Notes: generated from the sequence alone by a model not told the origin. A DNA stretch of 61,237 nucleotides from an uncultured virus (IMG/VR IMGVR_UViG_3300025870_000001) (IMGVR_UViG_3300025870_000001); one strand, 5' to 3'. Positions 8,165 through 32,332 are shown, numbered from the stretch's first letter. Numbers and translations: made by a program.

Positions 8165-8221
8165 TTTTAATTCCTATTTTAAGTTAAACCTCATCCTCCA
8201 GCTCAACTCTTCCTTTCTGTC
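8144..8221. repeat. 78-bp direct repeat, copy 1 (copy 2 at 8610-8687)
   Basis: aacatctacatg...cctttctgtc identical in both copies. Confidence 0.97.
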
Positions 8222-8400
8222 GATCCTAGTTCAGCCCCATCATAAAGACATTCTCATAAATGATACCATAGTATTAGTAAACCCTATTTTACGTCGATTA
8301 CTAATACTATGATGTTAGTTCAAATGTCCTTATGGTGGAGCTGTGGGGTACTGCCCCCCAGTCCAGTTCGTATTCGATTTGTTTCATCGATTACATCTTT
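8217..8400 (-). ncRNA. Truncated permuted tmRNA: tRNA-like domain plus intervening segment, no tag reading frame
   Basis: T-arm UGGGG-GGCAGUA-CCCCA, CAGCUCC-ACCA (CCA at 8335-8333), hairpin intervening segment, GGGGCUG-AACUAGGAUCGACAG from 8238; G3-U70 pair; 5' boundary approximate. Confidence 0.85.
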
Positions 8401-8818: not shown

Positions 8819-9151
8819 TCATTCTTCTTCCTTGAAACCCATTTTCAGAAGTTTTATGTATTGAAACATATCTTCTGAAAATGGATTATCAATTCCTAAT
8901 TGTCTATCCACAATTGCTTCCAAAACCATATTCATAAAGGCCATTTCCTCATGTAGGCCTTCATCTGTAGATAAAGGAAACTCATAATCATTCGTAAGTT
9001 TATCAATAACATCAATCATAACATGATGACAGATTTGTTCAGTCTCAGAACCATTGGCCAAATAATCATTGATAGAATCAAGATCAATATGTCCACTTTC
9101 TTTCTTTGCACCAAATAATTCTGTTGCATCTATTACGACATTTGTTTCCAT
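8819..9151 (-). CDS. Acidic hypothetical protein
   Basis: 110 aa, TAATG overlap with phoH. Confidence 0.7.
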   Translation of the reverse strand: METNVVIDATELFGAKKESGHIDLDSINDYLANGSETEQICHHVMIDVIDKLTNDYEFPLSTDEGLHEEMAFMNMVLEAIVDRQLGIDNPFSEDMFQYIKLLKMGFKEEE

Positions 9152-9873
9152 TAAGCTATTCCTAATTCCAACTTGTTGATTATATAGTCTTTAACCAAAG
9201 CACTTCTGACAATATCATCTTGGCCAAATTCAATGAATGCGAATTGTGGCATATTTTTAATAATTTTCATAAAATCTAAAACGCCGTCTTTTTCGTCTTT
9301 CCATCTGAAATCAGACTGTCTGAAATCTCCACAGAATAATATTAAACAGTTTTCTCCCATTCTGGTTATCACTGAATCCAATTCGTGAAAATTCATATTT
9401 TGACATTCATCTACTATGATTATACTATCGTAAAAAGTTTGTCCTCGTATAAAAGATGTTGAAGTAAAGTTAATTAAGTTATTCTTTCTTAGACTTTCAT
9501 ATGCAGTGCCACATTCTAATAATTCATTAACTATTGTCTTATATGGTGCTTCATATGATTCTATTTTTTGTTTTTCGGTGCCAGGCAAAAATCCCATATC
9601 TCTAGTAGGAACTACACTTCTTATAATTTGTATTTCTCTGTACATAGATCTGGAAGACATTAATTCTCTCAGCGCAAGATACAGCGAAACGAATGTTTTT
9701 CCTGTTCCTGCTACTCCATGTAGAAATAGGTGGTGGCCATCTTCAAAAGCGTTAAATACTTCTTGTTGAGATGGTGTTGCCGGATAAATTCTTTTTAAAT
9801 CTGAACTCCTGTTATCTAAACCGATGAATCTTTTATTTCTATTAATTTTACTTTTTTTGGATCTTTTGCTCAC
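9151..9873 (-). CDS. phoH: PhoH-family ATPase
   Basis: GVAGTGKT, GFLPG, FIRG.TF, VDECQN, CGDFRQSD, DIVRS. Confidence 0.95.
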   Translation of the reverse strand: MSKRSKKSKINRNKRFIGLDNRSSDLKRIYPATPSQQEVFNAFEDGHHLFLHGVAGTGKTFVSLYLALRELMSSRSMYREIQIIRSVVPTRDMGFLPGTEKQKIESYEAPYKTIVNELLECGTAYESLRKNNLINFTSTSFIRGQTFYDSIIIVDECQNMNFHELDSVITRMGENCLILFCGDFRQSDFRWKDEKDGVLDFMKIIKNMPQFAFIEFGQDDIVRSALVKDYIINKLELGIA

Positions 9874-10865: not shown

Positions 10866-11219
10866 TTAGAAGCTGAATGATGCACCAATGCTAATATCAC
10901 CCATTCCCCACTCATCGTCTGTAGTGGTTTTTGTATATACTTCCAAGCCAGTTACTGAAGTTACTGGTAGTGTTACTTGATATTCCATACCTGTAAATTC
11001 AATATCTTCTAGATCCATAATATTTGGGCCAACTTCTACGTTAGCAATACCAAAATCCCATGTCAAATCAGTTTCAAATGTCAAAGCATTTGTTTCTGTT
11101 TCCATGTTTCTTTCTGCTTTAAATTCACTGTCTAATGATAGACCATTTCCTAATTCAATCGCTGCGGCCGAACTTGCCAAACCAAGTGCAACAACACTTG
11201 CTGTAATAAGAGTTTTCAT
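10866..11219 (-). CDS. Secreted small outer-membrane beta-strand protein
   Basis: Signal peptide, alternating amphipathic strands, C-terminal ISIGASFSF (terminal Phe). Confidence 0.7.
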   Translation of the reverse strand: MKTLITASVVALGLASSAAAIELGNGLSLDSEFKAERNMETETNALTFETDLTWDFGIANVEVGPNIMDLEDIEFTGMEYQVTLPVTSVTGLEVYTKTTTDDEWGMGDISIGASFSF

Positions 11220-11258
11220 TTCTGTATTTCCTTTGTTAAAATTCTTATAAATTAAAAT

Positions 11259-11580
11259 GTCACTACTTCTGTTGCTAGGTGAGTGACCAACCCCCTGTGG
11301 TTATGCTGCTAGAGCAAACTCAGATGGTGCAAAATTATCGTTTGCATTTGTAGTTTGTGGCTGAATAACGTAGGCCAACACGGTAATCTACTCTCATCTC
11401 TACACACCTGTCGATCCTAGTTCGCCCCCATCATAAATGCACTAACTTCGACTACCCATTCGGGCCATCTATGTTCTGCAAAACTTCCTGTTGCAGCAGG
11501 ACGCAGTGCATTTATGGTGGAGGCGTTGGGTACTGCCCCCAAGTCCAGTATGTATGTTGAATCGTATCAACAATTACAAG
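11259..11580 (-). ncRNA. ssrA: Permuted two-piece tmRNA, alphaproteobacterial type; tag ANDNFAPSEFALAA
   Basis: Acceptor piece UUGGG-GGCAGUA-CCCAA-CGCCUCC-ACCA (CCA 11517-11515), paired intervening segment, coding piece GGGGGCG from 11429, tag 11345-11301, terminal GCAACAGA hairpin; ends approximate. Confidence 0.95.
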
Positions 11581-11584
11581 TATA

Positions 11585-11613
11585 CTTATAACATAGTTTT
11601 CCATGTGCGTCAA
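11585..11613 (-). promoter_or_regulatory. Sigma70-type promoter of tmRNA
   Basis: TTGACG-N17-TATAAG. Confidence 0.65.
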
Positions 11614-11649
11614 TAGTTTTTCAACTTTTTAATACACATGGTATTTTTA

Positions 11650-20041: not shown

Positions 20042-20521
20042 CTAAAATTTATTTAAATATTTTGCAATATGGCCAACAAATGGCAATAACATAATGGCCA
20101 TTAGAAGGTTAGCGCCCGTATGTGCCAATGCGATTCTAAACGTGTCTCCTTTTGGCATGCCATCTGAGACTAAAATCCCTGCAAGCCAGATGGTTCCTGT
20201 CGTTCCTATATTCGCCCCTAGAACAGCACCAATCGCAGCAGGGAGCGGCAATGCACCAGACGCAACTAATGCAATGATTGCGGTTGTACTTAAACTTGAT
20301 GATTGCCATAACAAAGTCATGATGATTCCACCAAAGAACATGTATAGCGGATTTCCTAAGAAAAACGAAAGATGTTCCATGTTCCCCATAGACTTCATGC
20401 CTCCAGAGAATGTCTTTAATCCGATATAGAATATTACCAGACCTACTAGTGCCGTAATGACAGGGTTTCCTAAATCCATTTTCTTTACCTTTTTCCAAAG
20501 TTTCTTATTCTGTTTTTTCAT
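20042..20521 (-). CDS. Na+/Pi cotransporter family protein (single repeat)
   Basis: QSSS..T and LGANIGTT signatures, multiple TM helices. Confidence 0.88.
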   Translation of the reverse strand: MKKQNKKLWKKVKKMDLGNPVITALVGLVIFYIGLKTFSGGMKSMGNMEHLSFFLGNPLYMFFGGIIMTLLWQSSSLSTTAIIALVASGALPLPAAIGAVLGANIGTTGTIWLAGILVSDGMPKGDTFRIALAHTGANLLMAIMLLPFVGHIAKYLNKF

Positions 20522-20616: not shown

Positions 20617-20943
20617 GTTACATTATAAGAGTAATAAGAAAGGTGATTCGAAATGATTAAGAACAACTCAGAAATTCTTCGTGAAGTGCTTCTCACTCTC
20701 TCCCCCAGAGAAGAACGTGTCATTCGAATGCGCTATGGAATTAACGGTGTCGGGGAGCACACTCTCGGCGAAATCGGCTATATTTTCAACTTGTCTGTTG
20801 AACGCATTCGTCAAATCCAAGCCAGAGCCGAACGGAAACTGAAACATCCTTCGCGTTCTGTGGATCTTCGCTCGATTTTAGTTGACATTGCTGCATAAGT
20901 CTGTTACATTATAAGAGTAATAAGAAAGGTGATTCGAAATGAT
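20617..20943 (+). repeat. 41-bp direct repeat (20617-20657 and 20903-20943) carrying -10, leader and start codon
   Basis: gttacattataagagtaataagaaaggtgattcgaaatgat identical twice. Confidence 0.95.
20653..20898 (+). CDS. Stand-alone sigma70 (RpoD-like) region 4 protein
   Basis: LSPREERVIRMRYGI..EHTLGEIG..FNLSVERIRQIQARAERKLKHPSRS..LRS. Confidence 0.9.
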   Translation: MIKNNSEILREVLLTLSPREERVIRMRYGINGVGEHTLGEIGYIFNLSVERIRQIQARAERKLKHPSRSVDLRSILVDIAA

Positions 20944-23394: not shown

Positions 23395-23941
23395 AGTTGA
23401 TTATACAGGGCTTTGTGGCCCACGTCAAGGGCTTTTGCCAAAATAATTAAAGAATCTTAGCGAATTCTAAGAAACTTTTTGAAACATTTCGTGAGATAAT
23501 CTGCCGGAGGGCCCGCCGAGACGACTCAGAAAATCCTCTGGGGATTTGGTAAACTTCTAAGAAATCAGGCTAAAGTCTCAAAAGCTAGAGTCTGCAGCTG
23601 ATTCGCAAAAACCATATCCCTAAGAATCCCATATTTTCCCATTAATCTCCAATAATTCTCTAAGATTGTATCTGATTCTCTAGTGCAATTTCTTCCTGAT
23701 AGTCTCTCAGAAATCTCTCTGCAATTCTTCTATCAGATGTCATCACAAGTAATTTTCCATCCTTATCATAGGCTATAGAATATTCTCTATGTTTTCTTAT
23801 ATAACCTATGCTATTCTTCATAGATCTTTCCATACAATCTCTAATGGATCTACCAGTATAAGTACCATACCCAATAGCAATCCAAACAGAATTACTCTGA
23901 ATATTTCTTCTTTACGGATCATCACATATTCCTTTCATATT

Positions 23942-24137
23942 AAAACTCCTTTCCTCATACGCCTAACTAGTATCTCCAATCTCTCCGCATGGCCTTATTG
24001 ACATTGCCACTCTAGTTTGATCGAAACTAGCATCTCTAGGTTTCACGGCACTGATATTTCACAGGCGAATATATTCACTAGAGATCGTGTTTTTAGGTGA
24101 TCTGCCCTCCGCACAGACGTATGAGGAAAAGAGTTTT
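23942..24137 (-). ncRNA. Unassigned ~200-nt multibranch RNA closed by a 24-bp helix
   Basis: 24137-24114 pairs with 23965-23942 using three G-U pairs valid only on the minus strand; internal helices; upstream promoter 24217-24249. Confidence 0.7.
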
Positions 24138-24255
24138 TTTAATTTTCTCTACTACTACATGTAGATTTGTTCTATTTTGGTAAATGAGCCGGTCTTCTTC
24201 TCCGAATCACTCTAATATTGTAGTATATTAATGAGCAATTGTCAAGGGCTTATTT

Positions 24256-24329
24256 TGGCATCGGTGTAGGGAGTCGAACCCCAGCTTTCAGTTTTGGAGA
24301 CTGATGTGCTACCGTAACACTTCACCGAT
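24256..24329 (-). tRNA. tRNA-Trp(CCA)
   Basis: ATCGGTG/CACCGAT acceptor, anticodon CCA, G73-CCA. Confidence 0.93.
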
Positions 24330-24618
24330 CTATTGCATATTCAACATTCTTTTTGAGATACCATTTCTCTATGACAGGTAAACCAAACTCATCCTCATCA
24401 ACGCATATGTAAGCTACTGTCTTCTTGACATTCGCATATCGATATCCAGAATCATTTATCTGTCCACCACCTACCCAAACCTTATGTGGGAAATCTTCAT
24501 TGATATTGTTAACTGGATCATCATTGAGAGAATACTCAAAATAATTACCAACTTCTTTTTCAGTGAAGCAACCTATCGGGGATTGGGTATATGTGTAATA
24601 TGGCATTCTATTATTCAA
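24322..24618 (-). CDS. Hypothetical phage protein
   Basis: FPHKVWV..GYRYANVKKTVAYICVDED; stop codon lies inside tRNA-Trp. Confidence 0.7.
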   Translation of the reverse strand: MNNRMPYYTYTQSPIGCFTEKEVGNYFEYSLNDDPVNNINEDFPHKVWVGGGQINDSGYRYANVKKTVAYICVDEDEFGLPVIEKWYLKKNVEYAIDR

Positions 24619-24835
24619 CCTCTATGATGGAGTGATTAGTTTCACCACCAGTCAATTGATCTGCAAGTTCTTGAATCATATCTTCACTCACAGAAATGAA
24701 TTTGTAAAGAGGATTTCCTCCAGCAGGTCCATTCTGTTCTAACAGAACACAATCACATCCATGTTCGGCAGCAAATTGAACTACTTCTTCATGTGTCACT
24801 TCATGAGAGACATCTAATTGAACACTATAAATCAT
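24611..24835 (-). CDS. Small early protein
   Basis: NGPAGGNP motif; behind promoter cassette. Confidence 0.7.
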   Translation of the reverse strand: MIYSVQLDVSHEVTHEEVVQFAAEHGCDCVLLEQNGPAGGNPLYKFISVSEDMIQELADQLTGGETNHSIIEVE

Positions 24836-31360: not shown

Positions 31361-32332
31361 TTATTTCTCTTTAATTTGTCTTTCGAATTCTCTTAGACGT
31401 TTGTATACACTCGCCAATTCAATAATAGTTGGCCAAGCCTTTAATAGATATTGCATAGAACCTTCTACTCTACCAAATGCACGAATAATTTGTTGCATCA
31501 CTCCTAATGTGACTACACCGGCAACTATCGCAGGAGCAAGAAATACATATGCACTCAATACATTTGCCTGAAGATATGCTACTCTGCCTACATTAAAGTA
31601 TAGGTATCTTATATATGATTTAAAATGGATGCCTCTGACATCTTGAAACAACTCATTGATTGTCTTGGGCCTGACAGTTTCATCATCTTCTGCGATAACT
31701 AATATCTTGCGATATGCTGCTTCTTTCTTTTGTAGGTCATACTCTACTCCTACTAGACGCAACAACCAACCCAATCCAACTAAAAATAATGTGCCGCCAA
31801 TGCTCCAAACCAATGCACCTGTCACAAGGCCATACTGCCAATCTCCGAAGAAGAAGATAGGAATGCCTATGCTCAGTCCAAGTAGAATAGGCACAAACTG
31901 CACTAAGACCATAATAGATTCTATGAAACTAGTTCCAAGACTTTCCATAATTCGACTGAATTTGATTGTGTCTTCTTGTACCCTCTGGGCTGCACCTTCA
32001 ATTGTACGTGCCTTGTCGTATACAGAGTGATACCATTCTACCATGGCAGTTCGCCATCTGAATAGAAAATGTGCGGTGAAAAAACTAATTGCAACTGCGA
32101 TTGCAACATATATTGCGGCAAGGTATATAAAACTACCTAAACTAGCCCAATATTCTGTGATTGTGATTGCATTAGGTTCTCCCAATGCTTTTTGGATCAT
32201 GTCGTAAAACTGCCCAAACCATTCATTTATTTTTACATCAATTTGTACTTGTACCCAAAGTGATGATAAGATTATTGCAGAACCAATCCAACTCCATAAT
32301 AACCACTTCTTTTCAGTATAAAATCTAAACAT
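31361..32332 (-). CDS. SbmA/BacA-like peptide transporter
   Basis: INEWFGQFYDMIQKAL, FRWRTAM, IEGAAQRVQEDT, EAAYRK.LV..ED, W.TIIEL.SVYKRLREFE. Confidence 0.9.
   Translation of the reverse strand: MFRFYTEKKWLLWSWIGSAIILSSLWVQVQIDVKINEWFGQFYDMIQKALGEPNAITITEYWASLGSFIYLAAIYVAIAVAISFFTAHFLFRWRTAMVEWYHSVYDKARTIEGAAQRVQEDTIKFSRIMESLGTSFIESIMVLVQFVPILLGLSIGIPIFFFGDWQYGLVTGALVWSIGGTLFLVGLGWLLRLVGVEYDLQKKEAAYRKILVIAEDDETVRPKTINELFQDVRGIHFKSYIRYLYFNVGRVAYLQANVLSAYVFLAPAIVAGVVTLGVMQQIIRAFGRVEGSMQYLLKAWPTIIELASVYKRLREFERQIKEK

Follow-up and report, generated by a model that had tools for sequence, protein, structure and literature searches.

A small phage RNA with a long closing helix and a covarying self-complementary loop

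Introduction

The packaging RNA (pRNA) of phage phi29 is 120–174 nt long; its two ends form a helix, and it has a three-way junction and loops through which copies pair with one another. The retroviral dimerization initiation site (DIS) of HIV-1 has an 8–9-nt hairpin loop with a purine-flanked central palindrome that varies between lineages yet stays self-complementary. Kretsch et al. (PMC12286853) name the phi29 pRNA as a natural RNA multimer and describe GOLLD (RF01998), ROOL (RF03087) and OLE (RF01071) as RNAs that all form RNA-only homo-oligomers. The kissing loops seen there by cryo-EM in OLE and GOLLD contain adjacent loop bases that covary, with switches among GGCC, GAUC and AGCU. GOLLD and ROOL are phage-borne, often lie near tRNA islands and have no known function. 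The same holds for manA RNA (RF01745) of marine T4-like cyanophages, and cryo-EM work of 2025–2026 showed that these three phage-borne RNAs build dimers and cages; for manA, a 2026 preprint (10.64898/2026.07.01.735769) reports decamers and a 60-mer cage held together by kissing loops. In Synechococcus phage S-CREM1, manA sits between tRNA-Leu and tRNA-Asn, and a single array of that phage (9745–10567) interleaves wcaG, manA and abiF RNAs with tRNA genes. The tRNA cluster of T4 likewise contains two small stable RNAs of unknown function, rnaC and rnaD (species 1 and 2; NC_000866 annotation). Candidate viral RNAs have been catalogued on a larger scale by Fremin et al. in 2023, whose catalogue comprises 10,006 of them (PMC10690425).

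Here we describe a genuine RNA gene whose family, 136–221 nt in length, appears to be new and has no match in Rfam 15. A long helix (P1) joins the two ends of the RNA, and one of its hairpins (P2) ends in a loop that is self-complementary in every homologue aligned. This kissing-loop signature, which was absent from the preliminary description of the locus, is the main new point.

Among described RNAs, manA is the nearest analogue, though the two are not homologous in either direction of comparison. Both are about 200 nt long with many stems, and both occupy a tRNA-array niche. The manA model, with which the manA RNA of S-CREM1 scored 96.6 bits as a positive control, found nothing at E ≤ 10 in our element and nothing in 20 homologue loci (gathering score, 55.2 bits), and our covariance model of the new family (R1), run with filters off, gave no match to S-CREM1 manA. 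Whereas manA is closed by only 5 bp and its kisses join different loops, the RNA described here has a 21-bp P1 and one self-complementary loop, so that a dimer is predicted rather than a ring or cage. The models RF01998, RF03087 and RF01071 had no match in the window, the element region or the 20 homologue loci. All three are described as large, and many GOLLD RNAs exceed 800 nt (PMC12286853), in contrast to the 136–221 nt found here, where only one intermolecular site is supported.

The T4 RNAs rnaC and rnaD lie 1–6 nt from their neighbours and are co-oriented with the tRNAs, but they stand at the end of the array and not at its head. R1 with filters off scored at best 10.1 bits in T4 68000–75000, at a site off rnaC and rnaD; the 3′ part of rnaC folds like a tRNA, and the fold of rnaD is not significant (z = −0.8). 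The phi29 pRNA differs in using two different loops to form a ring on the portal of phi29-like podoviruses, whereas the palindromic loop studied here belongs to T4-like myoviruses. The HIV-1 DIS has a 6-nt palindrome in a genomic RNA leader, compared with 4–8 nt in a small phage RNA, and the likeness is one of principle only.

Results

The DNA analyzed, a stretch of 61,237 nt from an uncultured virus (IMG/VR IMGVR_UViG_3300025870_000001) that we call the window, is part of a T4-like myovirus encoding a gp32-type SSB, a helicase loader, an exonuclease, PhoH, and baseplate and tail-fibre proteins. It also carries seven tRNAs and a permuted alpha-type tmRNA, and its gp32-like protein is at most ~53% identical to cyanophage (cyanomyovirus) gp32. 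A partial tmRNA-like match on the minus strand (8217–8367; alpha_tmRNA 62.5 bits, model positions 85–169; tmRNA_permuted 61.6 bits) lies 3 kb from the full permuted tmRNA (11210–11628) and might represent either a partial duplication or another coding piece. An 81-aa ORF that matches sigma-70 region 4 (20653–20898, plus strand; PF04545, E 1.7e-15) is placed opposite to the strand of its neighbours, and three host-like genes on the minus strand encode an SbmA/BacA-like transporter (31361–32332; E 6.6e-138), a Na/Pi-cotransporter-like fragment (20042–20521) and PhoH (9151–9873).

On the minus strand, positions 24137–23942 form a multibranch RNA closed by a gap-free helix, in which AAAACUCUUUUCCUCAUACGUCUG (24137–24114) pairs with UAGGCGUAUGAGGAAAGGAGUUUU (23965–23942) through 24 base pairs, three of them G-U. 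The preliminary description had proposed this helix, and both the pairing and the folding energy confirmed it: the 199-nt stretch had a minimum free energy of −68.8 kcal/mol, against a mean of −45.3 (sd 3.85) for dinucleotide shuffles (z = −6.10), and none of the 200 shuffles folded as well. As bounded by homology and by R1 (161.5 bits, E 3.8e-41), the RNA comprises 192 nt (23944–24135, minus strand); in the window, two to three extra A-U pairs beyond these bounds extend the closing helix to 24137/23942. Similarity between the element and its relatives begins and ends exactly at the base of this helix, and the flanks differ.

P1 joins both ends of the RNA, and P2, an optional P3, and P4 bearing P5 spring from its top (all on the minus strand). 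The 5′ arm (24115–24135) and the 3′ arm (23944–23964) of P1 form 21 conserved pairs with an invariant ACU at the base, and the 3′ arm contains a ribosome-binding site, GAGGAAAGGAG (23956–23946). The P2 hairpin (24087–24114) is built of P2a (GUG/CAC, 24114–24112 with 24089–24087), an internal loop, P2b (AGG/CCU, 24108–24106 with 24097–24095) and an apical loop, GCAGAUCA (24098–24105), at whose central GAUC (24102–24099) we propose that a second copy kisses. The optional P3 arm (24032–24085) has AUCUCUAG paired with CUAGAGAU at its base and a distal CCUG/CAG(U)G hairpin. The P4–P5 domain (23966–24031), which is the most conserved sequence of the family, contains P4a (GCUAGU/ACUAGU), P4b (UUCGAUC/GAUUGGA with a GAU bulge), the P4–P5 junction AAACUAGA, P5 (GUGG/CCAU) with its 14-nt loop CAAUGUCAAUAAGG, and the return junction GCGGAGA. 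Two further motifs were rejected by eye against the consensus: the P2 internal loop as a kink-turn or 11-nt tetraloop receptor, and "UUCAAUC" as a T-loop, where A-to-G changes of the A58 equivalent fit pairing.

Relatives were gathered by scanning IMG/VR (public viral contigs) for patterns taken from parts of the element. The 58 distinct full-length homologues (136–221 nt) aligned as A3, on which R1 is based, showed the covariation that the preliminary description had asked for, and helices P1, P2, P3, P4 and P5 are all supported by it. In a 54-pair model, 97.2% of 2895 cells were standard pairs and 23 of the 54 pairs changed on both sides, with cell counts overstating the independent events because the 58 homologues are related. 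The covariation score was 0.215, compared with 0.112 in column shuffles (reached by 0 of 500), and sliding the partners by 1–3 columns left only 37–46% paired. When all column pairs were scanned, only a few weak signals stood out besides the loop palindrome and the pairs of the model, and the strongest of them (columns 171:179, five two-sided changes) probably reflects shared descent.

P1 was paired in 97.6% of cells, with two-sided changes at 11 of its 21 pairs. Its ACU/AGU base was present in 58/58 homologues, matched one-base deletions occurred on both arms in 7/58, and pair 19:235 was U-G in 58/58, which would be A-C on the other strand. Nine pairs above the base, A3 columns 9:245 (24127 with 23952 in the window) were non-standard in 21/58, being U-U in the homologues inspected and U-A in the window. 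All three pairs of P2a changed on both sides (versions GUG/CAC, AUG/CAU, GAAC/GUUC and AGA/UCU), and a GAGG in P2 was invariant. The AUCUCUAG/CUAGAGAU helix noticed in the preliminary description is real and corresponds to P3: three of the four pairs in columns 85–88 changed on both sides, and pair 128:140 was UA in 12 and CG in 11 homologues. The GUGGC/GCCAU pairing noticed with it is also real, as the four pairs of P5 (G-U, U-A, G-C and G-C). P4b and P5 each contain two compensated pairs, and the P5 loop and the junctions are nearly invariant.

The hairpin CUAGUUU/AAACUAG, also claimed at the outset, can form in the window and stays base-pairable in 98.3% across homologues, yet it had no two-sided change and seven A-C breaks among the 58. 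The competing distal arrangement (GCUAGU plus UUCGAUC with GAUUGGA plus ACUAGU) was 99.5–99.7% paired, with two pairs changed on both sides. The distal P4 is thus the better reading, as the local hairpin lacks a compensated pair and is broken seven times, though an exchange between the two pairings could conceivably occur. The reported duplication of UGCGGAG exists in the window and a few relatives but is not conserved, most homologues having UGUAGAG at the 5′ site.

The arms vary considerably between phages. P3 may be full length, extended by an extra hairpin, replaced by ~100 nt, absent, or shortened to five pairs capped by GAAA, UUAG or UUCG. In a set of reduced variants (L296, L298, L326, L350, L351, L317 and L352), the conserved junction and P5 are deleted, and a short loop caps P4b or P4a alone; the pairs that close it in L298 are compensated (GAUC/GAUC).

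In the 8-nt loop of P2, columns 35–38 were self-complementary in 58/58 homologues (116/116 cells paired), as GGCC, GAUC, GUAC, CCGG, GCGC or UCGG. The outer pair was GC in 54, CG in 3 and UG in 1, and the adjacent inner columns 36:37 were GC in 28, AU in 21, CG in 5 and UA in 4. Adjacent bases cannot pair within one chain, and the covariation of 36:37 therefore indicates pairing between two molecules. An intramolecular partner is also unlikely, since the molecule holds no second copy of the tetramer in 33/58 homologues. Across all loci, we counted about 15 versions of the loop, with the palindrome at a constant offset and mostly 4 nt long (6–8 nt in five versions); two versions, UCGG and GGCU, depend on G-U pairs. 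Self-complementarity together with covariation of adjacent bases is the pattern used to support symmetric kissing loops in OLE and GOLLD (PMC12286853), and the P2 loop has both.

From this comparative signal, two copies of the RNA probably join by a loop–loop kiss of P2. A kiss of 4 bp (GAUC in the window) is weak by itself. With one self-complementary covarying loop and no further convincing contact, a dimer is the predicted assembly. A further candidate for self-pairing, the CUAG in the junction between P4 and P5 (J4/5), showed no covariation and was broken in 7/58 homologues. The P2 loop was also considered as an anti-SD mimic (GAUCACCU), a motif that is not conserved.

Two loci carry two RNAs each, with a different palindrome per copy: GGCC and CCGG in L117, GAUC and CCGG in L122. 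The second RNAs, which are shorter and directly follow the main one (L117, 420–530; L122, 1360–1460; both minus strand), share the long P1 and the P2, here with a CCGG loop, and differ in their inner domain. That of L117 scored 46.6 bits with R1 and had a fold z of −5.4, and that of L122 (fold z = −4.7) was assigned by fold and by eye. These second RNAs suggest a wider family built on the P1–P2 frame.

In the whole window, Rfam 15 gave ten matches at gathering score, none of them in 23942–24140, and at E ≤ 10 the region 23700–24500 gave six matches, none on the element; 20 homologue loci contained only tRNA and tmRNA at gathering score. The proposal of a new ncRNA, and the cmscan check attached to it, therefore came out in its favour, with no Rfam match at either threshold and many covarying homologues. 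R1 found 87 full-length matches in 96 sources. In one IMG/VR pattern scan, it recovered the RNA in 85 of 92 loci (84 whole and one cut by a contig end), the remaining seven loci being chance hits of the pattern.

The window contains exactly one copy, as does each of five large phage records (98–275 kb, two of them estimated to be at least 90% complete), of which none encodes psbA and all five encode a permuted tmRNA. Outside these phages, the core pattern hit 85 sites among 185,579 reference genomes of bacteria and archaea, none of which was matched by R1. In a blastn search of 23600–24700 against 50,697 phage records, the only matches were to tRNA-Trp, in 17 records. A megablast of 24 kb gave no match among cultured phages, and the region is absent from the nearest genome record. 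The RNA occurs, once per genome, solely in large marine T4-like phages that lack psbA and have a permuted tmRNA.

Upstream of the element on the minus strand lie, as previously described, a tRNA-Trp (CCA) gene (24256–24329) and a promoter-like TTGACA-N17-TACAAT (24217–24245), ~75 nt from P1. The promoter claim held in part: this is the best site of the region (11 of 12), but the sites of the region were no more numerous than in shuffles (9 vs 9.6). A relative, L360, has a near-identical tRNA-Trp, −35 box and leader followed by a different version of the RNA, in which the middle of P1 and the loop differ and P3 is capped by GAAA, and the break falls at the P1 base. The RNA is thus a cassette that is exchanged between phages. 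Within 24217–24228, seven bases at the −10 box are inverted between the window and L360 (ACTACAA vs TTGTAGT), and both have a −10-like hexamer. Three other loci (L119, L151 and L199) share a conserved GC-rich GGCAGCCGGGGCGGGGGGCGUG...UAUCACC ~30–70 nt upstream of the RNA, without a match in Rfam.

RNA libraries were compared as assembled contigs, which cannot show level or strand. Contigs from two studies cover 23753–24208 (library X17) and 23982–24210 (X19), and their stops at 24208 and 24210, just past the −10 box where a start is expected, hint weakly at that start. Another stretch is covered by an X19 contig of depth 6.9 (23644–23951) whose fit continues to ~23957, inside the P1 3′ arm; this end (~23952–23957) is a similarly weak hint of a processed end, and both ends of the contig run into letters that we take to be sequencing adapter, which they resemble. 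Summed depth over the core (462 and 182, vs 10–50 beside it) was rejected as a measure of expression because contigs from other variants with the same core contribute to the sum.

RNase III-type excision from the flanks calls for an uninterrupted helix of some 20 bp or more, and P1 provides 21 conserved pairs, 24 in the window. On the strength of this length, the RNase III release suggested in the preliminary description is plausible; cleavage within P1, by which any ribosome site in the arm would be freed as well, is a tentative proposal that we hold at somewhat less than even confidence.

Downstream of the RNA, the window has the mini-ORF MKGICDDP* (23912–23938, minus strand; eight codons), whose ATG at 23938 comes 7 nt after the AGGAG (23950–23946) of the P1 3′ arm, as the preliminary description had stated. 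A 35-aa hydrophobic ORF (23925–23818, minus strand) begins within it. A survey of 61 distinct element-plus-flank contexts, which are related and not independent, scored SD-like motifs in the final 10 nt of the 3′ arm of P1. Such a motif was present in 29/61 contexts, with an ATG 4–6 nt past the element in 28 of the 29. A tRNA gene followed P1 at 3–7 nt in 11/61, none of which had an SD in the arm, and the other 21 had neither an adjacent tRNA nor an arm SD and continued with a more distant SD, a promoter, a hairpin resembling a terminator, or a second element. The arm thus carries a ribosome-binding site only where an ORF follows, and its absence before tRNAs (0/11) indicates that the site is an adaptation of the variable lower P1 and not the reason for the RNA.

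The element was always co-oriented with the flanking genes, on the coding strand, and either heads a tRNA array or precedes a small ORF; in many copies, only 8 nt separate the RNA from the stop codon of the ORF upstream, and there is no promoter. The commonest downstream gene, present in most of the contexts with an ORF, encodes a conserved 68-aa protein (MRTVHYVG... or MLHFVGF...; for example, L002, 1699–1905, and relatives). The window lacks it and has the 8-codon frame in its place. Neither this protein nor eight other neighbouring proteins had a Pfam hit, and a PHROGs search with 12 neighbouring proteins returned two hits, both to families of unknown function and neither for the 68-aa protein.

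Discussion

On balance, we favour reading this element as a stand-alone, excised, self-dimerizing phage RNA in which the use of the ribosome site is secondary. The part of this reading that makes the RNA a separate product released from a longer transcript is likely to be correct: a tRNA follows without an SD in 11/61 contexts and the window lacks the usual downstream protein, both of which speak for a stand-alone gene rather than a leader.

The readings in which the structure acts in cis start from its neighbours. In a translational switch or riboswitch, the fold would hide the downstream ribosome-binding site and free it upon a signal. The AGGAG of the P1 3′ arm with an ATG 7 nt later, the arm SDs in 29/61 contexts with their well-spaced ATGs in 28, and the recurrence of one 68-aa protein family as the most frequent downstream gene all fit this idea. 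A leader of this kind should, however, have a constant class of downstream gene and a signal in every member, and the contexts divide into 11 with a tRNA, 29 with an ORF and SD, and 21 others; the 11 tRNA contexts have no SD, the further 21 have none in the arm, and the window lacks the usual protein. Moreover, a helix of 21–24 bp and about −40 kcal/mol is not reversible, no conserved alternative pairing frees the P1 3′ arm, and the self-complementary loop is left unexplained, which makes the switch improbable. What survives of the earlier claim of a translational switch is at most a local by-product at the 29 sites, the 11/11 tRNA contexts being devoid of an SD. We give equally little credence to an operon leader that would act on RNA polymerase or on transcript stability, either as a put/EAR-type antiterminator or as a 5′ stabilizer of the tRNA array. 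At several loci, the RNA does come first behind a sigma-70-like promoter, with a tRNA array downstream of it, and the reduced variants keep all their stems neatly closed, but many copies sit 8 nt past an upstream stop codon without a promoter, cmscan found no similarity to put or EAR, and a role in cis gives no reason for a covarying self-complementary loop.

The sharp stop of homology at the helix base, flanks that vary between loci, the near-identical upstream region of L360 joined to a different version of the element, and the invariant terminal ACT...AGT could together suggest MITE-like mobile DNA, with the 24-bp "helix" as its terminal inverted repeats. Against this stand a single copy per genome (in the window and in 5/5 records), an orientation that always follows the flanking genes, five inner helices that covary, and G-U pairs that are kept, as at pair 19:235 (U-G in 58/58, A-C on the other strand), and we regard a mobile element as highly improbable. 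The RNA might instead be a protein-binding scaffold or decoy, namely a packaging RNA like that of phi29 or a sponge for a host protein, with the palindrome serving a dimeric protein. It has a pRNA-like helix of the 5′ and 3′ ends, a multi-way junction and a loop for intermolecular pairing, and a protein might bind at the P5 loop and the junctions, which hardly vary. A sequence-specific protein site, though, would not drift among GGCC, GAUC, GUAC, CCGG and GCGC, the Rfam models of pRNA, 6S and Y RNA had no match, and T4-type phages, to our knowledge, package their DNA without RNA. The GGA-type sponge suggested in the preliminary description is not supported, as the GGA motifs are base-paired inside the covarying helices P2b, P4b and P1 and not in loops, and the UGCGGAG duplication is not conserved. 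We regard a scaffold or decoy as improbable.

Under the favoured reading of an excised, self-dimerizing RNA, the RNA would be cut out of a longer early transcript, its 3′ side being set free either by RNase P cleavage of the tRNA 3–7 nt downstream or by a double-strand-specific (RNase III-type) cut within P1. Two released RNAs would then join through the symmetric loop–loop kiss of P2, and the dimer would work in trans as an RNA particle resembling those of OLE, GOLLD, ROOL and manA. In contexts with a downstream ORF, the lower part of the P1 3′ strand may have been recruited as a ribosome-binding site, which cutting of P1 would also unmask; this use appears to be secondary and dependent on context. 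The neighbourhood of tRNA and tmRNA genes points to translation, and we consider action of the particle in trans on translation-related targets a doubtful but conceivable extension. A more elaborate version, also speculative and to our mind rather unlikely, pictures an RNA-only particle in which the P1–P2 frame carries varied "cargo" (P4–P5, or the second domains of L117 and L122), the palindrome serves as an address that prevents mixing, and the target is host translation. Variants without the P5 core show that the best-conserved part is dispensable in some phages, which is difficult to reconcile with one function in trans.

Natural self-assembling RNAs were long thought to be rare. The family described here is small (136 nt at its shortest), widespread in ocean viral metagenomes and unusually clean in its comparative signal of self-pairing, and its natural variants lacking one arm or the core make it an easy object for testing the purpose of such particles. 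It also illustrates how a putative processing helix can come to serve as a ribosome-binding site, and an RNA gene that has been swapped as a cassette between nearly identical phage genomes. If the palindrome does act as an address, it would keep apart the RNAs of co-infecting phages, or two frames within one phage. If the particle exists, abundant ocean phages would build it during infection, and it would act alongside their tRNAs and tmRNA.
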